The position numbers and the translations under genes were made by a program. From IMG/VR virus record IMGVR_UViG_3300037262_000003, positions 32,001 to 96,000 of that record: DNA of 64,000 nucleotides, one strand, 5' to 3'. The stretch's first letter is position 1. Every line of letters begins with the position of its first letter. The DNA is from a virus. The notes beneath the pieces were generated by a model. The model saw only the letters and a list, made by a program, of their open reading frames with translations, did not search any database and had not been told where the DNA came from. Below, in pieces: positions 588 to 32,092 of this stretch.

Positions 588-2714
588 TTAACCTCCAATA
601 AGACGAAGGGGCAGGAACCGAAGTCCCTGCCCCTTAGTGTACATGACTAACTTGGCATCTGACCAGCGATCACACACATGGAGATCGATCTTCAAGGGCA
701 AAGCAACGTAGTCCTGAATCCCTTCGCCCGTCATAGCCCACTCTAGGAGGGCCTGAGCTTCGGGAACATCAGCCTCGGGGCACTCGATCACGATTTCATC
801 GTGGACCGTAAGGTTGATCGTCCAGTACTCCTTCTTCTTACTATAGAACCTCACCATTGCCATCTTTGTCAAGTCAGCAGACGATCCCTGGATCTTAGCG
901 TTGAAGATCTGACGCTCAGCCCTGTTCCGAATCTTCTGATCACCAGACATAAGCTCTGGCAGACGACGCATCCTTCCCAGGATGGTTGACGTGTGAGGTG
1001 GCTTGCCCGTCTTCCTCATTGAATGACGTCGGGCCTCACGGAGAACCTTTTCCTTCTCGGCCTCGATCTCCGGGGTGTTCCTGTCGTACCTGTCCTTGAA
1101 CTCCTGAGCCTCATCCATAGACACGGACATCATAGAAGCTAGCTTCTTGATCCACGCGCCGTAGACTGTGGCGAAGTTGATGGACTTGCCGAAACGCTGA
1201 CGGTGATTCTTGGCTTCCTTGTCCCCGGCATCCACTAGAGCTTGCAGTTCTTCCGGTACCAGCCCGAGAGCCATGGCTGCGGTCAATGTGTGAGGGTCGA
1301 TTCCGTTGAGGAACCCGTCCCACATTGCACCATAGCCTATGAAGTGGGCCAGCAGGACCAGCTCGATCTGCCCGTAGTCAGCCACGATCAGCTTGTTACC
1401 TGGTCGGGCAACGAACAGACCACGGATCATCGTAGCCAGGTCATTAGGATCACCGGTCGGACGGGGGATGTTCTGGAGGTTCGGATTTCTACAGCTCATT
1501 CTACCAGTTACTGTGCCGTACTGCACGAAGTCAGGGTAGACGATGCCATCGAACACACGGCATGGCTTTTCCTTGTCGTCTGGGTCACCGAGGTACCCCA
1601 GGACGTACGTGCTGTAGACCTTGTTCGTCTCCCTGTACTCCAAGAGCTTGTCAATGACAGGGTTCTCACCTCTGAAACCTTCTAGGCTCTCGTCATCCGT
1701 TGAGTAGAACGAATGGTCCGGAACGATCTTTACCTTGGCCTTGCGAGCAGCCTCAACCTTCTTCCTCCCAGTCGTGGTCATCTTCCAGGGCCTGAGTCCC
1801 AGGCCGCCGTCCTTCTCGGACTTGAACAGGAGACCCTGGATCTGCTGCGAGCTGCGGAGGTTGACCTTACGTCCAGCCTCATGATAGAACGCCCGCTCTC
1901 TCTGATCAACAAGAACAGACAGTTCCCCGCGTAGCTCCTCCAGCCTCACCGTGTCCATGGCAGTCCCAGTCGTGCGCATGTCAGCCAGGACAGTAGTCAG
2001 CCTGACCTCCCACTCCCAGACTTCCTCAAGTCCGTCAGCGATAAGCAACGGCAGACATCTCTTGTACTCCTGCCATCCGTACACAAGGTCGTAGTGAAGA
2101 TACTGCGCGACCTGGTTCATCCTGTAACGCTCGACGGTCTTGCCAATGCCCGAGTCGTCATAGATAAACCCGTACTTGTTCTTGGTCACAGGCTTGAGAC
2201 CGTACTGCATCTGGTTCTCGTCTGTCAGATGGTGCATCTCTATGGTGCAGACCAGACGACCCTCAGGAACAAGGGGCTTGCCCGAGAACGGAGACGGGCG
2301 GTACTTGGCGACTGACGCACCGTCGAACGTGGCACCGTGAGCGATCTGTGTGATCGCAGAGTCAGCGAACAAAGGATTGATCAGATCAAAGACTTGCTGC
2401 TGATTCATATGCGCCGGGGGCTGTGAGTAGATAGGAACTTTGTAGTTCCTGATCTTACCGTCCTGGCAGAGGCGAGGCTCGATGCCCTCACCGATGATCT
2501 CGTTGCCGATCGGGTGACCCATTGGGATCTTGATGACACGCCCGTGGGTTGCCATTCCCATCCATATAACAGAGTTCCTGGCGGGGACACCGCGATCGTC
2601 TAGGCCCGGCTCAGACGGGATAGACTCCACGTCAAAGAAAAAGATTCCTTGTTCAGCAATATATTCCACCTCCTCCTTCAACCTCTCGGGTGTCAAGATG
2701 ATACTTGAATCCAT
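588..2714 (-). CDS. polA: Family A DNA polymerase with 3'-5' exonuclease; conserved part ends at ...DRWSDAK (651)
   Basis: ExoI FFDVES, ExoII AHGATFD, ExoIII YLHYD; TGRMSCRNPNLQNIP; motif A ADYGQIEL, B RFGKSINFATVYG, C VHDEIV. Confidence 0.95.
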   Translation of the reverse strand: MDSSIILTPERLKEEVEYIAEQGIFFFDVESIPSEPGLDDRGVPARNSVIWMGMATHGRVIKIPMGHPIGNEIIGEGIEPRLCQDGKIRNYKVPIYSQPPAHMNQQQVFDLINPLFADSAITQIAHGATFDGASVAKYRPSPFSGKPLVPEGRLVCTIEMHHLTDENQMQYGLKPVTKNKYGFIYDDSGIGKTVERYRMNQVAQYLHYDLVYGWQEYKRCLPLLIADGLEEVWEWEVRLTTVLADMRTTGTAMDTVRLEELRGELSVLVDQRERAFYHEAGRKVNLRSSQQIQGLLFKSEKDGGLGLRPWKMTTTGRKKVEAARKAKVKIVPDHSFYSTDDESLEGFRGENPVIDKLLEYRETNKVYSTYVLGYLGDPDDKEKPCRVFDGIVYPDFVQYGTVTGRMSCRNPNLQNIPRPTGDPNDLATMIRGLFVARPGNKLIVADYGQIELVLLAHFIGYGAMWDGFLNGIDPHTLTAAMALGLVPEELQALVDAGDKEAKNHRQRFGKSINFATVYGAWIKKLASMMSVSMDEAQEFKDRYDRNTPEIEAEKEKVLREARRHSMRKTGKPPHTSTILGRMRRLPELMSGDQKIRNRAERQIFNAKIQGSSADLTKMAMVRFYSKKKEYWTINLTVHDEIVIECPEADVPEAQALLEWAMTGEGIQDYVALPLKIDLHVCDRWSDAKLVMYTKGQGLRFLPLRLIGG
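606..635 (-). terminator. Stable hairpin with cUUCGg tetraloop, inside the polymerase C-terminal extension
   Basis: AAGGGGCAGGGAC-TTCG-GTTCCTGCCCCTT on - strand. Confidence 0.65.
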
Positions 2715-2773: not shown

Positions 2774-3487
2774 TTAGCCTAGGGAGTCCACGAACTCCTG
2801 TAGCTCGGCGCGGGTCTTCATCTGGTTAAGGATGTACGTGTCGTCGTACGCACGGTGACGCAGGGCTTCACGCTGTGTGGCAGTGATCGGGCTGAGACCT
2901 TCCCACTCCGACGCCATGTCATCTTCGGACAGACGGTCCACGCTGTAGGAGAAGAAGCCGTTCTTGCCCTTCTCCTTGGAGATGACCCAGTACATGTTGT
3001 CATCCGAAAGGTGCTTGCCCTTTCCGACGAGCTTGTTGTACTCCTTCTGAATGGCAGAAGTCGGATCAGGAGTTGCCTCCCAGACGAGAACCTTGCTCGG
3101 GGCAGAGACATCCACGACGTTGAAGTACGCGGTAGGCTTGGCCCTGTCACCGATCTCGCAGAGCGGGCAGTCATCCTCGTCCTCAAGGCAGTACTCCACC
3201 TTGGTTACCTGAACGGGCTTGCCCGTGGCCTCATCCACAGACATGTACTTGATCCAGTGACGCTTGGCATAGGAGAAGTTCTCCGGGTCAAGGAAGACCA
3301 GGACCGCTGACGAACCCTCAAGCTGGAAGGTGGTCTTGTTGAGGTTGTTATATCCCCCGAAGCCACGACGTGACGTACGCGCAGTGCGTGTGCCCGTGAC
3401 GGTGGTTCCCTCTGATGCTCCGGTGTCGAATGATTCGCTCACTGTGTCGCTCTCTTCTCTTGTCGCTGTGTTACGCGCTGTTCTCAT
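2774..3487 (-). CDS. Single-stranded DNA-binding protein (T4 gp32-like, Zn-binding)
   Basis: H..C..CPLC motif; position beside the polymerase. Confidence 0.65.
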   Translation of the reverse strand: MRTARNTATREESDTVSESFDTGASEGTTVTGTRTARTSRRGFGGYNNLNKTTFQLEGSSAVLVFLDPENFSYAKRHWIKYMSVDEATGKPVQVTKVEYCLEDEDDCPLCEIGDRAKPTAYFNVVDVSAPSKVLVWEATPDPTSAIQKEYNKLVGKGKHLSDDNMYWVISKEKGKNGFFSYSVDRLSEDDMASEWEGLSPITATQREALRHRAYDDTYILNQMKTRAELQEFVDSLG

Positions 3488-3510
3488 GTGTGTTTGACCT
3501 TTCCTCTATT

Positions 3511-3942
3511 TTACCGTATTCCCTGGCGTCTTAGTTCAAGGAAGAGTTCGGTGACCCTCCTGGTGAACCCCGTCTTGGAGATCGAGATCCTCGTACTTGG
3601 GTACAGTACACCCTCTTCGTGTGCGATGTCAAGCAGTCCTTCGACCTGACGACGAGTGTAGTACCTGCGCCTGCCACGAACGTCACCGTTCTTGCCCGGC
3701 ACGTAGTAGCCCGACTTGGGGAGGATGCCGTCAGACTCCCAGCCTCGTATCGTAACAGCCTTACGGTGTCCGAGCAAGTCTGCGAGCTGACCGGTCGTGA
3801 AACACTCTACCTCATACCCCGAGATGGTGAGGATGCGGCCCGAAGGCCATTCGATCTCATCCTCTGGCTCTGGGTCAGGCTTGCGTACCTCGGGCTTCAT
3901 CTTGGAGCCTGGGTAGTACTCGATGATGTTGTCTAGGATCAT
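3511..3942 (-). CDS. MerR-like HTH DNA-binding protein
   Basis: FTTGQLADLLG...TIRGWESDGILP...RRYYT. Confidence 0.75.
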   Translation of the reverse strand: MILDNIIEYYPGSKMKPEVRKPDPEPEDEIEWPSGRILTISGYEVECFTTGQLADLLGHRKAVTIRGWESDGILPKSGYYVPGKNGDVRGRRRYYTRRQVEGLLDIAHEEGVLYPSTRISISKTGFTRRVTELFLELRRQGIR

Positions 3943-4361
3943 GACTTCACCGGCACGATGGCAAAGGTCTCGACCTCTGTGATGAGGGAATCGAGCTGTG
4001 CGTCAGTGATCTTGCCCTGCTGGTTGAGCGCGTAGAGCTTGTCCTCATCGAACTGTCGGACTTCCTTGACAGGGAAGACCTCATCGTAAAGATTCAGTTC
4101 CTTGGACAGGGATTCAGTGGCGTCAAGGTCAATGCTTGACGAGATCCTGCGCTGAGCGCAGATCGCCTTGTAGGTCTTGCCTTCTACTGTGAGTTCTTCC
4201 TCGAAGTCAAGCCAGCGATGCCCGTTCTCGTCCTCCCGCCCGTCCTCCATGAGGATCTCACGCAGGAGATTCCTGTAACTATCACGACTCTTACCCGTGC
4301 GTTCCTGTTCAGCACGGTTGAACAAGAAACCGTGAATCATCTGGTTCACCGCGCTGTTCAT
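3939..4361 (-). CDS. Hypothetical protein of the replication module
   Basis: ORF with ATGA overlaps on both sides. Confidence 0.7.
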   Translation of the reverse strand: MNSAVNQMIHGFLFNRAEQERTGKSRDSYRNLLREILMEDGREDENGHRWLDFEEELTVEGKTYKAICAQRRISSSIDLDATESLSKELNLYDEVFPVKEVRQFDEDKLYALNQQGKITDAQLDSLITEVETFAIVPVKS

Positions 4362-18701: not shown

Positions 18702-20327
18702 TTACGCTCCCTTGCGGGTGAATACGCTTCCGTAGTTGGAGGCAGTCTGGGTAGTTCCCGAGGGATTACCCCCCCAGGAGCTATCCAAGGCGATAGTATT
18801 CGACACTGTGGTGTTAAACGCGACATTCGTTGCCTGGCTGGACAGGAACCACGCGTCAGTGCTAGCCCCGCCCTGAAGATTTCCAGTAAACGCCACTCCA
18901 CCCTTGATGAAAATGTTGACCACGCCAGACGTACCAGTCGATATGACGACCATCCTCAACCGGATCTCTCCGGTGTACGTTGTGCTCGGGGCCATTGCTG
19001 TTGCGCCGATAATGTCACCACCGGAAGTAGACACAGCAGTACCGTTGAGGCTGGGCTTGTACCCGTATGTCTCGACTGTCGTCCAGGTAGTAAAGCTGAA
19101 TGGAGTCTCTATCTCGTAGATGGTCCCGACCTGGGCGTCATTAGCAGGGATGGACCACTGCCTGGTCATCGGATTGTATCCGGTGAGGTTGGCGTTGTTG
19201 TCTACGGTATTATCGGCCTGGGTGATGAGAGTGTATCCAGAAAGAGCCGAATGAGGTGAGGTGACTCCGCCCGATAGCGCGATGGGCGCATTGGCTGTGA
19301 TCTCGGATGAGTTCCAGACTAGTATTTCCAGGGCTCCCGCCGCAGAGATCGACATGAGGTAGCCCTCACATAGATGACCGGCTGCCAGACCCGTCTCACT
19401 GCTCAACAGGGCTATTCCGACACCCTTGCTATCTGCTGTGCTGACCGGGCCAGTCAACCACGACACAATCTGCTCGGTAGAACCCGATCCCTGAGCCCAT
19501 GTCTGAAATTTTGCCGGTGTTAGCTCGACAGTAGTACCTGTTGCCTGGACGTGAGCAGCCGATGATCCGTTAAGGGTGTCTCCGAATACAGTCAAAGCCG
19601 AGTAAGCATTGCTTGACCCGGTACCATACGTGGCCACTCCCGAAATGTATTGATTGCCATCCGCCTCAGGCACGTTGATTATCTCATAGTCGTTCCCGGG
19701 CACGGGGGACACGGAGGCGTCGAGGTTTCCGGATGCCGGTGTTCCAGTATAGGCGAGGATCTGCCCGCTGGTTCCGTCCGCGATAAACGTAGCTCCGGTG
19801 ATTGTGCCGCCTGTGATGTCGGGCTCAACCACACCCAGAGGGTTAGTTCCTGCGCCGCTCTGCGCTGAGGTCACCCAGGAGAATGTGGATGTGCCCGAGT
19901 TGAACGTCCAAATCTGGGCAGGACCGTAGAATGTGGTGCCGTCCACTGCAAAGGTCTCGTACCAGACATCCCCGATCTTAGGGTCAGCGGGAGCGCTCGG
20001 AGTGTAGTAAACCGCAGTGATCCCTGCATTGATTATGGGGTCAAGATCAAGCGGGCCGATCCATGCGGGCTGAGAAGGATCACCGCCAATGAACGAGCAG
20101 GCCACTGTGGTCGTGTTATTGGGAATCGAATAGTACGTTCCCAGCGGCACAGCCCAGGCAGACACAGAGTTGCCCAGAACCTGAGGCACATTCAACTGGA
20201 GACGGCCCACGCCAAGAGGGTCATCGTTATTGATGACAGTTCCGGCGTAGATACCTGGCCATAGTGGTACTGTGCCCTCGCCTGCGCTGGGTAGATAAGT
20301 ACTTCCGTTGTTGACTGGGGTTGTCAT
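18702..20327 (-). CDS. Baseplate spike (gpV/gp5 OB-fold) with long fibre-like C-terminus
   Basis: GIYAGTV..NDDP..GR....VP...WA.P...FIGGDP..P.W. Confidence 0.85.
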   Translation of the reverse strand: MTTPVNNGSTYLPSAGEGTVPLWPGIYAGTVINNDDPLGVGRLQLNVPQVLGNSVSAWAVPLGTYYSIPNNTTTVACSFIGGDPSQPAWIGPLDLDPIINAGITAVYYTPSAPADPKIGDVWYETFAVDGTTFYGPAQIWTFNSGTSTFSWVTSAQSGAGTNPLGVVEPDITGGTITGATFIADGTSGQILAYTGTPASGNLDASVSPVPGNDYEIINVPEADGNQYISGVATYGTGSSNAYSALTVFGDTLNGSSAAHVQATGTTVELTPAKFQTWAQGSGSTEQIVSWLTGPVSTADSKGVGIALLSSETGLAAGHLCEGYLMSISAAGALEILVWNSSEITANAPIALSGGVTSPHSALSGYTLITQADNTVDNNANLTGYNPMTRQWSIPANDAQVGTIYEIETPFSFTTWTTVETYGYKPSLNGTAVSTSGGDIIGATAMAPSTTYTGEIRLRMVVISTGTSGVVNIFIKGGVAFTGNLQGGASTDAWFLSSQATNVAFNTTVSNTIALDSSWGGNPSGTTQTASNYGSVFTRKGA

Positions 20328-27775: not shown

Positions 27776-29788
27776 TTACGAGCTAACTGTGGCTGACGAA
27801 CCTGAGGCCATCTGGGTCAAAGAGATCACCACGAACTCGGCAGGTGCTGCAAGCGCAACGGCCACGGTCGCGTTAACCATTCCTGCTGCAATTGTATTCG
27901 GTGTGTTCACTGTGCTATCGCAGATGACCTGGAAGGAAGTGCTCGGGGTATTGCCCGCGAGCAGACCGTCCTGCATCTCCGACGTTAGATAGCCCGTGAT
28001 GGCTGTTGACATGTTCGACCAGAGCACGGAGTCGTTGTTCTGGAATACAGCGAACGCTGTGATCGCCTGTAGGTCATGCTGGAGCTTCATCAACGTACGA
28101 TTGATGTTGATGTACTTGGCAGGGTAGCCAGCGGCAGTTGTCAGACCGCCGAAGATGCAGAACCCAGTGTTCGGCACGATCTTGATCGGGTTGATCTGAG
28201 ACGTCTCAAGGTTGCCTAGGTCAGTCGGTGTGAAGTAGGCTTCGAGTGCTACCGCTGTGACGCTCGTCTGAGTTCCAGCAGGAGTCTGAGCGACATTGTT
28301 CTGGTTGTCGTTGACTGCCCACTGGCCAAGTACAGCGCCTCCCGGCGGAACCCACTTAGTTGCAGAGGAAGTACCAGCGGCAGGGTCGATGATTGACATC
28401 CAAGGACCGTAGATCTGACCGTTCTGAGAGGCCGTCACTGACGATCCTGACTGGCCCGATGTCATAGTCGTGTATGACGCTGCGACTACGGCACTGGTTG
28501 TCAGTCCGCCATTGAACATTCCGTCGATCACAAGAGCGACATTACCCACGCTGTTAGCCCAGGTGAGTACGTTGTTGAGAAGTGTGTAGTTGATAGTGGG
28601 AGATCCGCCCTGCAAGCCAGAAGAATCCGGCAGGTTAAGGTTGAGGATCTGGTGACCCACAATTCCGGCGAATGATCCCTGCTGCCATGAGACAGACACC
28701 GTGGCAGTGCCCGAAAGAGCGCCGTACAGGTCAATGGCAGTGGTTCCGTCTGTGCCAGGGGTGCTTGAGATAACGGCAGGCTGACTCGGGCCGGTAGCTG
28801 TTCCCAGGCTGATCGGGGTAGCGATGGCGTAAGGGTCAGACACTCCTGATACGTACGATCCTGCGCTCGGGTAATTCGATAGGCGAATGTAAGCCGAACC
28901 TGACGTTGTGCTGTTGATCATGCCAGGAGCATAACGGGAGCTTGCAGGGTTAAGGGAGATGCTTGGCCAGATCTCTACGACGTTGGCTGCATTCGGGCCA
29001 CCCTGGTAGATCTGTAGAGTGAAGAGGCTAGTAGCAGAGCCGTTAGTCGGGGTGATGCTGATGAACAGGTTAGATCCCCATACGCCAGGGAACAACGAGG
29101 TAACCGTCATAGACTGTACGCCCGTGGTGTTTGTCGTCGGAGGAACTGCGCCAGTAGAGGTAGGAGGTGCGGTGATCGTCAGCGCTGTGCCAATGGCAGT
29201 CGGGCTGCCTACAGTCTGCTGACGAGTGTACGTACCGGAGCCGCCTACCTGAGTCGAGTAGCAGTACCAGCCCGTTGCGTTAAGATCCGTTGGCGGTGAG
29301 GGGATGGTGATCGTTGATGTAGAGCCCGTCGTCAGGATAGATCCTGACGGAGACGGAGTGGTCTCACCATTGCCCGTGACGTAAGTCACTTCGAAGCGAT
29401 ACGTACCGGCTGCGACAGTACCGCCAGAGGTAGCAGTAGTTGGAACTGGCGCAGATGGAGCCGAAAGCTCAGGGCCAGTAGTGTCAGCAACAGTCAAAGC
29501 AGCCTGCGTGGCATCGCTGTTAGGAACACGCAGGACGTAGCAGCCCGTGCCACCGTTAGCGAAATACTGGTACACGGCGTATGGAAGATAGCTCGCAGAG
29601 CCCGAGCTGAACCCTCCGTACAGACGCTGGAATGCCTGCCAGTTGGTGATAAACGTCGGAACAGTAGGACCCACGTTGTAGTTTGCGGCGAAGGCTGCAA
29701 CGGCCTCGCCCGGAATGTTACCGGCACTGACCGTAACAGGTGCTGGTACCTGGTTTACGTACACACCTGGGTAAGTGTAGGCGGTCAT
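27776..29788 (-). CDS. Tail sheath protein with an inserted extra domain
   Basis: YPGVY, YFANGG..CYV.RV, PPGG...G, PAG, INPI, YININR, FQNND, PAEFV. Confidence 0.93.
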   Translation of the reverse strand: MTAYTYPGVYVNQVPAPVTVSAGNIPGEAVAAFAANYNVGPTVPTFITNWQAFQRLYGGFSSGSASYLPYAVYQYFANGGTGCYVLRVPNSDATQAALTVADTTGPELSAPSAPVPTTATSGGTVAAGTYRFEVTYVTGNGETTPSPSGSILTTGSTSTITIPSPPTDLNATGWYCYSTQVGGSGTYTRQQTVGSPTAIGTALTITAPPTSTGAVPPTTNTTGVQSMTVTSLFPGVWGSNLFISITPTNGSATSLFTLQIYQGGPNAANVVEIWPSISLNPASSRYAPGMINSTTSGSAYIRLSNYPSAGSYVSGVSDPYAIATPISLGTATGPSQPAVISSTPGTDGTTAIDLYGALSGTATVSVSWQQGSFAGIVGHQILNLNLPDSSGLQGGSPTINYTLLNNVLTWANSVGNVALVIDGMFNGGLTTSAVVAASYTTMTSGQSGSSVTASQNGQIYGPWMSIIDPAAGTSSATKWVPPGGAVLGQWAVNDNQNNVAQTPAGTQTSVTAVALEAYFTPTDLGNLETSQINPIKIVPNTGFCIFGGLTTAAGYPAKYININRTLMKLQHDLQAITAFAVFQNNDSVLWSNMSTAITGYLTSEMQDGLLAGNTPSTSFQVICDSTVNTPNTIAAGMVNATVAVALAAPAEFVVISLTQMASGSSATVSS

Positions 29789-29797
29789 CTAGTCTCC

Positions 29798-30547
29798 TTA
29801 ACCGACGTTGACCTGGCTGACAAGTCCCGCGCTCAAGACCCCTGTATTGAGCGCGATCCCAGCCGGGCTATCAAGATCGATATCGCCCAGATCGGAGTAT
29901 ACGGAGAGGTCAAGGTTTATCATGCTTACAGGAATAAGCGTACCACCCCAAGCCACAGAACTCCGAATGTCCTCTAGTAGCTCTGTGTAAAGACGCACAC
30001 GGTAGACCACCTTGAACAGACGCTTGCCGTCTTCATCGAGGCCATAGCCTTCTTCTGGTCCACCCAGGAGACGCATTGTTCTTAGTGTCCCGTTCTGTGG
30101 TACCCACATGGCACCCATCTTCGCAGGAAGACGCCAGAGTGTGGCAAGCTCAGCAATGAGAGGCTGGATGTGCTCGTTCCAGAAACGCCCGTACAGCGTG
30201 ACCTGGTAGTCAAGGTTGTACGGAGTTGGCGGGAACGGTGTGTAATACGGCGAATCCCGAGGGTCTAGCGCATGAGGATCAAACGCCGTGCCGAAAGCGA
30301 AAGGCGTCAGTCCTTCTGGCGTGTAAGGGATCTGCACCATCGCGCCCGACTGCATTCTCTCCTGGTCAGGATAGATACCAGCGTGCTCGATGATGATGAC
30401 AGGGTATGTGAGGTTAGCCAGCTCGTCCTGAGGCAGACGGAATCGCACGCCAACAGGACGACCTCCGACAGGAGCGTTCGTGTCTGTTACCGTGAGTCCC
30501 TGTAGACGCCACTTCATAACGGCGTCCTCATCGCGCAGCCATGGCAT
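29798..30547 (-). CDS. Tail terminator/completion protein
   Basis: P.PYNLDYQVT; immediately upstream of sheath. Confidence 0.65.
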   Translation of the reverse strand: MPWLRDEDAVMKWRLQGLTVTDTNAPVGGRPVGVRFRLPQDELANLTYPVIIIEHAGIYPDQERMQSGAMVQIPYTPEGLTPFAFGTAFDPHALDPRDSPYYTPFPPTPYNLDYQVTLYGRFWNEHIQPLIAELATLWRLPAKMGAMWVPQNGTLRTMRLLGGPEEGYGLDEDGKRLFKVVYRVRLYTELLEDIRSSVAWGGTLIPVSMINLDLSVYSDLGDIDLDSPAGIALNTGVLSAGLVSQVNVG

Positions 30548-31114
30548 TACTGTGTACCCCCACCAATTGTGCTAGGCGGCCCGTTGGTAGTGTAAGGCCC
30601 GCCCGGAGCCCAGTCAGCGAACTGCGAGTCCCAGACCAGCTCGTCGGGCTTGACCTGTGTCGTGGAGATGGCAACGATGATGTCACGACGCTGCATCTGA
30701 CCTCTGACGGAGATCTGGCGTACTCGGAATACCTTCCTGTCGTACACCACGCGATCCTTCATGTAGTTGCCTGTCATGATGTCAGCGTAATCCATACCGG
30801 CCTGTAGCATCTTGCTGAACGAGACGATGAGGGCGGCGTCGTCGTTGTAGTAGAATCCGTTCTCAGACTCTTCGTTGGCACCTTCCACGTGCTCGATATG
30901 CATACACTGTAGACGCTGTGACGGCAGGTACATAAGCCCGTTGCCCGTAGGCTCGTCGTAAACGTCATCCATCTGAGAGTTGGCCTCATCGAAACGGAAG
31001 TAGTCCGCCCAGTCACCATCAACGGCCTGCCATCCGTCCATGGCACCGAGGATCTTGTCAGTCTCATAAATAGTCCGGATTAAATCTTCCACGCTTGAAG
31101 TCCATGCGGCTCAC
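30547..31114 (-). CDS. Neck/head-closure protein split across two frames (GTG 31114 MSRMDFKRGRFNPDY, then ETDKILG...) by TAT-TTA-TGA
   Basis: Strong SD AAGGAGGT and GTGA coupling at 31114; DDVYDE, DRVVY..KVF, QVKPDELV.D.QF in the downstream frame. Confidence 0.7.
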
Positions 31115-31344
31115 CGGCTAACCACCTCCTTCAGCACCCACTCCGCGAACAAGCGTAGCTGTTCGGGCGATGCATCTCGTTTCATGCTGTTAGCCAGGTG
31201 GCTAATGACTTGGACATTACCTGGGACATACCCTAGGGCAGGGACGATGCGGTCAAGGCTTGGAGCATTGTGCCCTGGACCTCTTCCAGTACCAGGATAC
31301 AGGGAAATCCCCAAGACAGGGCAAACATCTGGGATGTAGAACAC
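31111..31344 (-). pseudogene. N-terminally truncated HNH-type endonuclease
   Basis: CPVLG...PSLDRI.P..GYV.GNVQVIS..AN.MK; only 77 aa. Confidence 0.6.
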
Positions 31345-31346
31345 TA

Positions 31347-31691
31347 CTACTCCCAGTCCTCGTGATAGACGCGTGCCGGAATTATCCCACCCATCTTCTG
31401 GGCGAAACGCTCTCCGTCATCTGTGCGCTCTGGTGCGTGCATGAGCTGCCCGCCAGTTGCGGCCTGGGCGCGCTGGTACAGAGCTGTTCCTATTCCCCTG
31501 CCACGATCTGCCTTGTCGTAGACCTTTACCTCACCGATCTGCGGACGAGACTGGCCTGAGTCGTAGTTAGACAGATAGCTCAGGTGCGCCACGGGCTCGT
31601 CATTCCGCATGGCGAATACGTGGCCCGAGTTGGTGTCCGGGTCGTGGTGCTCCTCGAACTGCACACTGTTGAGGTGGTCTGTCGCTGACAT
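31347..31691 (-). CDS. GNAT-family acetyltransferase
   Basis: V.V....RGRGIGTALY acetyl-CoA motif; TDDG..F. Confidence 0.75.
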   Translation of the reverse strand: MSATDHLNSVQFEEHHDPDTNSGHVFAMRNDEPVAHLSYLSNYDSGQSRPQIGEVKVYDKADRGRGIGTALYQRAQAATGGQLMHAPERTDDGERFAQKMGGIIPARVYHEDWE

Positions 31692-32092
31692 TACTTCATC
31701 CTCGTCTTGTAACCCTTGTCGCCACGCTCTCCAAGGGAATCTCTTGCCTTCTGTTCATCAGGATTGCGGGCTGTTGACCACGAGTCGTGGACTGCATTAG
31801 GCTGTGCCGTAGGATTGTCACCCACGTCTACGGCAGGCAAGGGCATTCCTAGCCTTGCGGCTACTGCCGCCCGATGATGCCCGCCACCCTGGATCTGGTA
31901 GTTACCAGCACGGTCGTTGAACTTGACACCCACAGGAGTCTGAAAACCATTCTCCTTGACGTGCGACTCCAACTTGGACATGTACTCGGGCTCGCGGTTG
32001 TATAGCGTGTCAGCCACAGCGTGAAGGGACTTGCCCTTCACACCGGGGTCTGAGCCTACGACATGCTTGAACTGTTCAGGCGAGAACTCCAT
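31691..32092 (-). CDS. ParB/Srx N-terminal-like protein
   Basis: L..HVKENGF.TPV.V...GGHHRAAVA..LG. Confidence 0.7.
   Translation of the reverse strand: MEFSPEQFKHVVGSDPGVKGKSLHAVADTLYNREPEYMSKLESHVKENGFQTPVGVKFNDRAGNYQIQGGGHHRAAVAARLGMPLPAVDVGDNPTAQPNAVHDSWSTARNPDEQKARDSLGERGDKGYKTRMK

Follow-up and report, generated by a model that had tools for sequence, protein, structure and literature searches.

A coding gap at the edge of a putative endonuclease cassette in a phage neck gene, and its candidate rescue by a ribosomal hop at UUA

How could a gene yield one full-length protein when its start and its body lie in different reading frames, and why would a phage carry such a gene? The question is raised by the gene for a phage neck protein on the minus strand of the 64,000-nucleotide stretch analyzed here (positions 32,001 to 96,000 of IMG/VR virus record IMGVR_UViG_3300037262_000003, a phage record of 110,053 bp with 56% GC; hereafter, the window). 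A preliminary description, made from the sequence alone, proposed that ribosomes hop over a UUA codon near the start of this gene and that the hop serves as a developmental switch. Our analysis confirms the interruption itself, points to a mobile HNH-type endonuclease cassette rather than regulation as its source, and favors a tyrosyl-tRNA hop as the way in which the two frames would be joined.

Two reading frames and a 4-nucleotide insert

Direct reading agrees with the preliminary description that the strong start of the gene lies in one frame (frame A): a GTG at 31114..31112, which follows a Shine-Dalgarno (SD) sequence and overlaps the TGA stop (31113..31111) of the upstream open reading frame (ORF), opens MSRMDFKRGRFNPDY and then runs into TAT-TTA-TGA. 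The body of the neck protein (YETDKILG...) continues in the +1 frame (frame B) from a TAT at 31068..31066, identical to the frame-A TAT that precedes TTA, as had also been noted, and followed by GAG ACT GAC (ETD). This second TAT lies in the frame of a 181-codon ORF (31092..30547), whose GTG at 31092 indeed has TTA as its fourth codon (31083..31081). Of 15 copies of the motif TAYTTAY in the genome, only the one in the neck gene joins an ended 15-codon frame to a +1 frame, here of 173 codons; frame-switch geometry was found at none of the other sites, and the copy at window position 20301 was rejected as such a site, being merely out of frame with a 541-amino-acid ORF.

The neck protein matched no Pfam or PHROG family, and NCBIfam gave nothing useful. 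An AlphaFold model of a contiguous relative (P0005; predicted local distance difference test [pLDDT] score, 79.7) matched, in Foldseek, the T4 portal-neck-tail structure (9mkb; E value, 1.2e-4) and also the entries 6tba (GTA), 8hdr (cyanophage Pam3), 9b42, 7z4w (SPP1 connector) and 8k37 (lambda), with the neck proteins of Pa193 and E217 among its further fold matches. At the level of the modeled fold, the product is thus a neck protein of the stopper/head-completion class, in line with the earlier assignment. The monomer model shows residues 1 to 12 as an extended stretch (pLDDT, ~52), and a helix comprising residues 13 to 31 starts at the junction of the two frames. In the BRock-group phages, the neck gene has the major capsid gene on one side and the tail sheath gene on the other.

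The homologues are contiguous here: ...GRFNxD[YF]ET... runs unbroken through 23 distinct DNA loci and some 90 database proteins, so that the window has four extra bases exactly between DY and ET, and a DNA alignment with relatives lacking an HNH gene showed a clean 4-nucleotide insert in the window. Both results, and the contiguous GRF..DYET of homologues without the 4 nucleotides, bear out the earlier claim that the gene is split at this point. The N-terminal pattern of the homologues is MSR.D.KRGRFN.D[YF]ET, and the closest relatives in a large protein collection (P0005 to P0016; 187 amino acids; 76 to 91% identical) read MSR[LM]DYKRGRFNPDYETDKILG unbroken. Among GenBank phages, tblastn found neck homologues only in the Streptomyces myophages BRock, LuckySocke, Alone3, GiJojo and pSt2308, with alignments that begin exactly at the landing Tyr; the annotated genes of BRock, LuckySocke, GiJojo and pSt2308, when translated, start 14 codons earlier, with MSR[LI][DG]W..GRF[NH]VD[YF]ET. 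A scan of metagenomes with the neck alignment returned five loci, all five of them contiguous, and megablast of the region against GenBank phages gave no match. D5 and K7 do not vary among 84 aligned homologues, and conservation reaches at least 90% at G9, R10, D14 and T17, so that the 15 frame-A codons hold some of the protein's most conserved residues; judged by this conservation, a neck protein without its N-terminal segment (D5, K7, G9, R10, D14) would be unlikely to work.

Pattern scans of IMG/VR for the 4-nucleotide form returned a single contig, 3300050011_000007 (L006), which reads GAC TAC TTA CGA GAC in frame A and ACT ACT TAC GAG ACC in frame B. In L006, TAC thus precedes TTA, a matched TAC is available for landing, and CGA is the codon after TTA. 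Eight matches to the 4-nucleotide pattern in GTDB genomes, none of them beside a neck homologue, were set aside as chance.

The four extra nucleotides are genuine and no assembly error. A contig from a different study (X5) covers positions 30600 to 31251, and a 471-nucleotide metatranscriptome contig (X8) covers 30759 to 31216, both with 0 differences and 0 gaps, and the contigs of X2 likewise cross the site without a difference. None of the refuting observations named in the preliminary description, among those open to sequence analysis, was made. In run X7, a peat metagenome with a depth of 4 to 8x here, two contigs end at 31024 and 31066, beside the site, and are not bridged, which would fit mixed variants; strains with and without the cassette may have been present together, or the depth may simply have been low, and the run speaks neither for nor against the insert. 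With three sets of contigs crossing the site, and with the same insert in L006 at ~75% nucleotide identity, a sequencing or assembly artifact, or a rare defective variant, is highly improbable. Transcriptional slippage was also rejected as a way of joining the frames, since the T runs are only 2 to 4 nucleotides long and the contig from the RNA library carries the 4 nucleotides.

The insert as the edge of a putative endonuclease cassette

The ORF upstream of the neck gene, left unidentified in the preliminary description, is probably the remnant of an HNH-type endonuclease gene. It matched PHROG profile phrog_3322, "endonuclease" (E value, 4e-23; profile positions 82 to 152 of 162), as well as phrog_1035 (endonuclease VII) and phrog_3118 (HNH), with PHROG E values ranging from 4e-23 to 6e-6; a sequence search of the PDB with the remnant gave chance matches only. 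It corresponds to the C-terminal half of a 158-amino-acid HNH protein of L006, to which it is 86% identical over that half, and tblastn of the L006 protein against the window recovered residues 85 to 154 only. In L006, the HNH gene is full length (positions 2482-2955) and is ATGA-coupled to the interrupted neck gene. A model of the L006 protein (pLDDT, 89.6) had PacI as its best Foldseek match (E value, 1.1e-3), along with Gme HNH and Hpy99I, all at borderline scores. N124 and N133 are invariant in 27 members of the family, which has the motif PS.DRID...GYVPGNVQ; the window and L006 have the His of HNAPSLDRI, but it is not kept across the family.

IMG/VR was then searched with the HNH ORF, and the matches were screened for a downstream neck gene. 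Besides L006, two loci with such a gene were found (L028 and L029), both of them interrupted. Over 27 distinct neck loci, an HNH gene lies directly upstream in all 4 interrupted ones (window, L006, L028 and L029) and in 0 of the 23 intact ones; codons 1 to 15 are out of frame with the body at each HNH-bearing locus and in frame at all 23 HNH-less loci (Fisher probability, 1/17550, or ~1/2600 if the window and L006 are taken as a single event). Each interrupted gene has a close contiguous relative without HNH gene (91% identity for the window and P0005, 97% at the protein level for L029 and L109, and 88% for L028 and L115).

The two sister loci are interrupted in their own ways. L029 reads ...GCC GAC TTT TGA in frame A and ACT TTT GAA ACG in the +1 frame, a 1-nucleotide insert at the same D-[YF]/E-T junction, where re-pairing on UUU-U before UGA would give MARLDWHSGKFEADF followed by ETKR. 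In its DNA alignment with L109, identity is ~97% to the right of the break and ~70% to the left, with the step exactly at GAC-TTTT-GAA versus GA-TGCT-GAA. L028 has its 1-nucleotide insert four codons earlier (...GGT CGA TTT CAA TAC TGA, with TTC AAT ACT GAC TAT GAA in the +1 frame), and re-pairing from UUU to UUC before CAA would give MSRLDAKSQGRF followed by NTDYETSK. In L028 (IMGVR_UViG_3300048811_000002, positions 1162 to 1734), the HNH ORF (full-length endonuclease at 1228-1734) is joined in frame to the neck gene's native 5' end, MSRLDAKNQGRFNTA, and a second copy of neck codons 1 to 14, recoded at synonymous sites, follows the HNH gene. The two 5' copies place the entry of the element at about codon 14 and indicate that it came with a restart of its own, and the fusion suggests that the endonuclease may be translated from the neck gene's own start. 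The neck ATG of L029 is preceded by AAGGAGGTGGTT, as in the window, and L006 has GGGGGAG there.

The endonuclease is, moreover, more conserved between these loci than the gene that it interrupts, as expected of a horizontally moving element: identities for the HNH and neck proteins are 67% and 46% (window versus L028), 64% and 49% (window versus L029) and 73% and 39% (L028 versus L029). These alignments put the break at the right-hand end of a mobile HNH cassette, which includes a copy of neck codons 1 to 15, and a selfish endonuclease cassette best explains the origin of the insert. The preliminary description, which missed both the HNH remnant and the cassette edge, had given the interruption a regulatory reading; the two features argue for a selfish element as its origin instead.

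Comparison with L006 then allowed selection to be followed on both sides of the gap. Window positions 31336..30634 align with L006 over 703 nucleotides without a gap at ~75% identity, with synonymous sites near saturation. The proportions of nonsynonymous and synonymous differences (pN and pS) were 0.087 and 0.8 for neck codons 2 to 15 in frame A, 0.156 and 0.60 for the neck body in frame B, and 0.115 and 0.70 for the C-terminal domain of the HNH protein. Within codons 2 to 15, seven of the nine nucleotide differences fall at frame-A third positions (binomial p of ~0.008), giving six synonymous and two conservative nonsynonymous codon changes, while in frame B six of six changed codons of the same segment are nonsynonymous. 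By these measures, codons 1 to 15 and the body are both under purifying selection, and the 4-nucleotide gap is old. As the 45-nucleotide segment sits between the HNH gene and the insert, it shares the history of the cassette, and selection on it makes sense only if the segment is translated and its peptide becomes part of the same chain as the body.

This selection bears directly on one alternative, namely, that no recoding occurs and that the phage makes an N-terminally shortened neck protein from frame B (from the GTG at 31092 or an ATG at 31041) or carries a crippled gene, complemented or dispensable. Frame B does offer those two starts, the N-terminal 12 residues are unstructured in the monomer model, an in-frame ATG in L028 could start a protein with a nonhomologous N terminus, and the database proteins P0041, P0044 and P0049 were called from an internal Met. 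Neither frame-B start, however, has an SD, whereas in all four cassettes a strong SD and stop-start coupling serve the 15-codon frame; the GTG at 31092 itself meets TTA at codon 4, and the segment under purifying selection encodes the invariant D5 and K7. Termination followed by reinitiation at the ATG at 31041 was rejected as a general answer, since L006 has no Met there. On balance, we regard a gene that does without recoding as quite unlikely.

A candidate hop at a slow codon

Under the account that we favor, the cassette consists of the endonuclease gene (N-terminally truncated in the window), an SD and its own copy of neck codons 1 to 15, and full-length neck protein would require a move to the +1 frame between Tyr15 and Glu16. 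With peptidyl-tRNA-Tyr on UAU in the P site, the A site would hold UUA, which should be slow, as the rarest sense codon of the phage and one read by none of its 26 tRNAs. During the wait, tRNA-Tyr would detach and re-pair with the identical UAU 4 nucleotides downstream, and decoding would restart at GAG to yield ...FNPDY-ETDK..., colinear with all homologues; ribosomes that read UUA would terminate at the UGA that comes next. Given UUA as the A-site codon, landing 4 nucleotides further on requires a UAN codon, and Tyr is therefore the only residue that allows this geometry. Few copies of the neck protein are likely to be needed per virion, in our own estimation, so that even an inefficient hop might suffice. 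The insert itself probably exists because it spoils the endonuclease target in the phage's own DNA, by analogy with MobA and gene 60 of T4. From the sequence evidence, recoding of some kind at the neck gene appears quite probable to us, and an endonuclease-linked gap rescued by a +4 Tyr hop at UUA is the form that we favor, with less assurance.

The rarity of UUA in this phage is pronounced. TTA accounts for 24 of the 29,895 codons in 115 long ORFs (0.8 per 1,000), which makes it the least used sense codon, at 0.16 of the expectation from positional base composition; CTA is used 10 times per 1,000. The 26 phage tRNA genes include Tyr(GTA) and Leu(CAA), and none is for Leu(UAA); the host tRNA for UUA is, we infer, scarce. 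One of the TTA codons counted is in the ORF at window positions 588..2714. As a separate matter of codon usage, AAA is still more underrepresented than TTA (28 codons; observed/expected, 0.10), despite a phage tRNA-Lys(UUU).

All four cassettes need a +1 change of frame within codons 12 to 16, and each offers a P-site tRNA a codon to re-pair with: UAU to UAU (+4) in the window and UAC to UAC (+4) in L006, both with UUA in the A site, UUU to UUU (+1) before UGA in L029, and UUU to UUC (+1) before CAA in L028. In place of the hop, a one-base +1 frameshift might serve in the window, by either of two routes. UUA could stay unread while a tRNA-Tyr takes the overlapping UAU in the A site, giving ...DYYET..., or UUA could be read as Leu with a +1 shift before UGA (in the window) or CGA (in L006), giving ...DYLET.... 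Such a shift would make the same change of frame as the hop; hungry-codon +1 shifts are well known (PMC5009743), the UGA after UUA in the window has the shifty-stop layout of L029, and, with position 15 variable among homologues (Y, F, S, Q, L, K, W), an extra residue might be tolerated. None of the 84 aligned homologues, however, shows an added residue between D14 and E16, UAU and UAC are poor codons for tRNA-Leu(UAA) to re-pair with, and the perfect P-site re-pairing that the sister cassettes offer is provided in the window and L006 by the Tyr hop only. A one-base shift is thus an unlikely substitute for the Tyr hop.

The sister loci also bear on the function that the preliminary description gave to the hop, which was that neck protein is made only while the bldA tRNA-Leu(UAA) is scarce, tying virion assembly to Streptomyces development. 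UUA is kept in both 4-nucleotide cassettes, TTA is strongly avoided genome-wide with no phage tRNA to read it, and the phiHau3 precedent invoked for the idea is real and has partial experimental support (PMC10732093). The nearest isolated relatives infect Streptomyces, at only 32 to 43% identity, and a WhiB-like gene in the phage genome (PF02467; E value, 1e-11) suggests an actinobacterial host; the host is probably an actinobacterium. We find no support here for developmental gating, however, in a genome known from peat and permafrost metagenomes (of 13 studies). The sister cassettes shift likewise with UGA (L029) or CAA (L028) in the A site, so that the shared need looks like a slow A-site codon rather than tRNA-Leu(UAA) in particular; no regulatory benefit is required to explain the insert, given how tightly it is linked to a mobile endonuclease, and the closest HNH-less relatives make the neck protein without a switch. 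A bldA-dependent switch is accordingly a speculative and improbable explanation of the locus.

Several points weigh against the Tyr hop and the cassette account that we prefer. Folding against shuffled sequences gave no significant RNA structure at the site in the window and L006 (z scores of -0.2 and -1.75), where only a 4- to 5-bp hairpin 5' of the site is common to both; no internal SD was found near the gap, and a nascent chain of 15 residues is short for bypassing. The 4-nucleotide/UUA form is seen at the DNA level in only two genomes, so that conservation of UUA and of the matched TAY codons has an n of 2, and the match of TAT with TAT and TAC with TAC is weak evidence (~0.5 by chance), tRNA-Tyr reading both codons. 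The matched codons could be a by-product of the formation of the cassette junction, and if two lineages took up the cassette separately, selection on the body would partly predate the insert. The HNH assignment, finally, rests on PHROG profiles and a borderline fold match, with a canonical His that is not conserved, and Pfam and NCBIfam find nothing on the HNH protein.

Taking the four loci together, we tentatively propose, as a wider reading that we hold with less confidence than the hop in the window, that mobile HNH cassettes repeatedly invade the neck gene at codon 14 to 15 and leave behind, on each occasion, another minimal insert that breaks the frame (4 nucleotides as UAY-UUA-Y, or 1 nucleotide as UUU-U or UUU-C), which would make the phage's own copy uncuttable and would be tolerated through +1 re-pairing at a slow A-site codon.

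Known recoding systems and the surroundings of the locus

To our knowledge, natural bypassing is known from very few systems, namely, gene 60 and its homologues, yeast mitochondrial byps and, as a candidate, the phiHau3 terminase gene, and we know of no bypass tied to a homing endonuclease other than gene 60, further examples all being gene 60 homologues. A search of the literature found no paper describing the interrupted neck locus. In T4, the HNH homing endonuclease MobA split a topoisomerase gene, and the 50-nucleotide insert of the cassette is bypassed (Bonocora et al. 2011, cited in PMC5009743 and bioRxiv 10.1101/2022.08.31.505936); the insert protects its carrier from nicking by MobA, and in some gene 60 homologues a hungry codon replaces the stop after the take-off codon (bioRxiv 10.1101/2022.08.31.505936; PMC5009743). 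The neck locus resembles this system in that an HNH-type gene is inserted in an essential phage gene, with a cassette that brings a restart and a diverged copy of the target; in that a ribosome-skipped insert would lie a few codons on, between matched take-off and landing codons and with a stop or hungry codon after take-off; and in that the endonuclease is often decayed (a pseudogene in T4, N-terminally truncated in the window) and the presence of the cassette varies among close relatives. It differs in its target, a neck gene and not a topoisomerase gene, in an unrelated endonuclease family, and in a gap of 4 nucleotides (1 nucleotide in the sisters) against 50. The neck locus gave no sign of a take-off stem-loop, an internal SD or a long nascent-peptide signal; only 15 residues are made before the gap, and bypass and protection are both putative.

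For the terminase gene of phiHau3, a UUA-linked bypass over 10-nucleotide, UUA-containing gaps has been proposed (Smith et al. 2013, cited in Antonov et al. 2023, PMC10732093). StrepC.1 has a similar UUA gap, the gap of a Streptomyces catenulae prophage is 7 nucleotides long, and bypass of the phiHau3 type is supported by mass spectrometry in Escherichia coli (PMC10732093). The window shares with phiHau3 a UUA directly after the take-off codon and a short, frame-shifting block in an essential virion assembly gene of an actinophage-like genome, with contiguous homologues. Its gap is shorter (4 nucleotides versus 7 to 10), its landing codon overlaps UUA, and both the gene and the phage type are different (a large myovirus-like genome, at some distance from the BRock group). 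The window adds an endonuclease cassette, whereas the text of PMC10732093 contains neither "HNH" nor "homing," so that no endonuclease link is reported for phiHau3.

Shifty-stop +1 frameshifting of the prfB (RF2) type was reportedly described by Weiss et al. in 1987. As at prfB, a P-site peptidyl-tRNA at the neck loci would leave its frame and re-pair in another, with a stop or a starved codon waiting in the A site, and the UUU-UGA of L029 compares with the CUU-UGA of prfB. Neither an SD stimulator at prfB spacing upstream nor any autoregulatory logic is seen at the neck locus, and the event in the window would be a +4 hop and not a +1 slip. Hops at hungry codons are known in E. coli (Gallant and Lindsley 1998, cited in bioRxiv 10.1101/2022.08.31.505936). 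The cassette itself is like the free-standing HNH/endonuclease VII-like homing endonucleases of phages (F-CphI, PMC6083498; PacI being the nearest solved fold) in being a small beta-beta-alpha-Me gene of patchy distribution, between or inside conserved genes, with a greater conservation than the flanking gene. It is unlike typical members in lacking a Pfam match and a family-wide catalytic His, and its nuclease role is a predicted one.

The neck locus looks like an independent second family with the logic of gene 60, much smaller gaps and three different slippery solutions at one target. If the wider reading of repeated cassette invasion is true, homing endonucleases would have in ribosomal recoding a general means of immunity, one that arose separately from T4 gene 60, and the UUA version would make neck output depend on the host's supply of tRNA-Leu(UAA). 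The locus makes testable whether recoding is a general way in which selfish endonucleases protect their carriers, and what the minimum length of a hungry-codon hop is.

The features of the locus are collected in Table 1.

Table 1. Positions in the window of the neck gene, its interruption and the genes upstream
Feature	Position	Strand	Basis
Shine-Dalgarno AAGGAGGT for the frame-A start	31124..31131	-	Direct reading
Neck codons 1 to 15 in frame A, from GTG (MSRMDFKRGRFNPDY); copy of the neck 5' end brought by the cassette	31070..31114	-	Match to the N terminus of contiguous homologues
Candidate take-off codon TAT, neck codon 15	31072..31070	-	Sequence reading
4-nucleotide coding gap (T + TAT)	31066..31069	-	Alignment with HNH-less relatives; DNA and RNA-library contigs of independent origin; L006
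Frame-A reading across the gap	TTA 31069..31067, then TGA 31066..31064	-	Sequence reading
Neck body, frame B (ETDKILG...GGGTQ); resumes at GAG 31065..31063, stop TAA 30549..30547	30547..31065	-	Homology, selection and fold
Predicted HNH-type (beta-beta-alpha-Me) endonuclease remnant, 77 amino acids; last codons carry the neck SD	31111..31344	-	PHROG and L006 homology
GNAT acetyltransferase gene, in place of the HNH N-terminal half	31347..31691	-	PF00583 (E value, 2e-5)
ParB-like accessory gene, 133 amino acids	31691..32092	-	Weak PHROG ParB-like and DNA-binding matches

Between the HNH remnant and the next virion gene upstream, which encodes 320 amino acids, lie the GNAT and ParB-like genes (31347-32092, minus strand). 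The ParB-like gene is common to the window and L006 (ORF 1997..2431) and is absent in the HNH-less relatives examined, four of which (L017, L019, L022 and L024) have other genes or none at its position. On the other side of the neck gene, L006 carries a second, different endonuclease gene (positions 3456-4160; 234 amino acids; endonuclease VII type, with CAICHG...DHNH...CQQCN) between the split neck gene and the virion gene that follows, and the HNH-less L017 and L024 have an unrelated gene of 194 to 222 amino acids at this position; the neck gene is flanked on either side by a hot spot for insertions. The HNH family has a second, intact copy in the genome (164 amino acids; L116), which lies outside the window, at G000:C1 29080..28586 and directly upstream of the WhiB-like gene (28614..28195), in which no frame break was seen.

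The interruption also affects annotation, in that gene callers mis-start or truncate interrupted neck genes. Out-of-frame N termini were assigned to the neck homologues P0021, which is the L006 neck gene, and P0022, and N termini at an internal Met to P0042 as well as to P0041, P0044 and P0049. From its sequence (...PTTYETDK), P0022 is probably a third 4-nucleotide case, and the 157-amino-acid neck forms that start with M[AR]GWQ may hide further interruptions.

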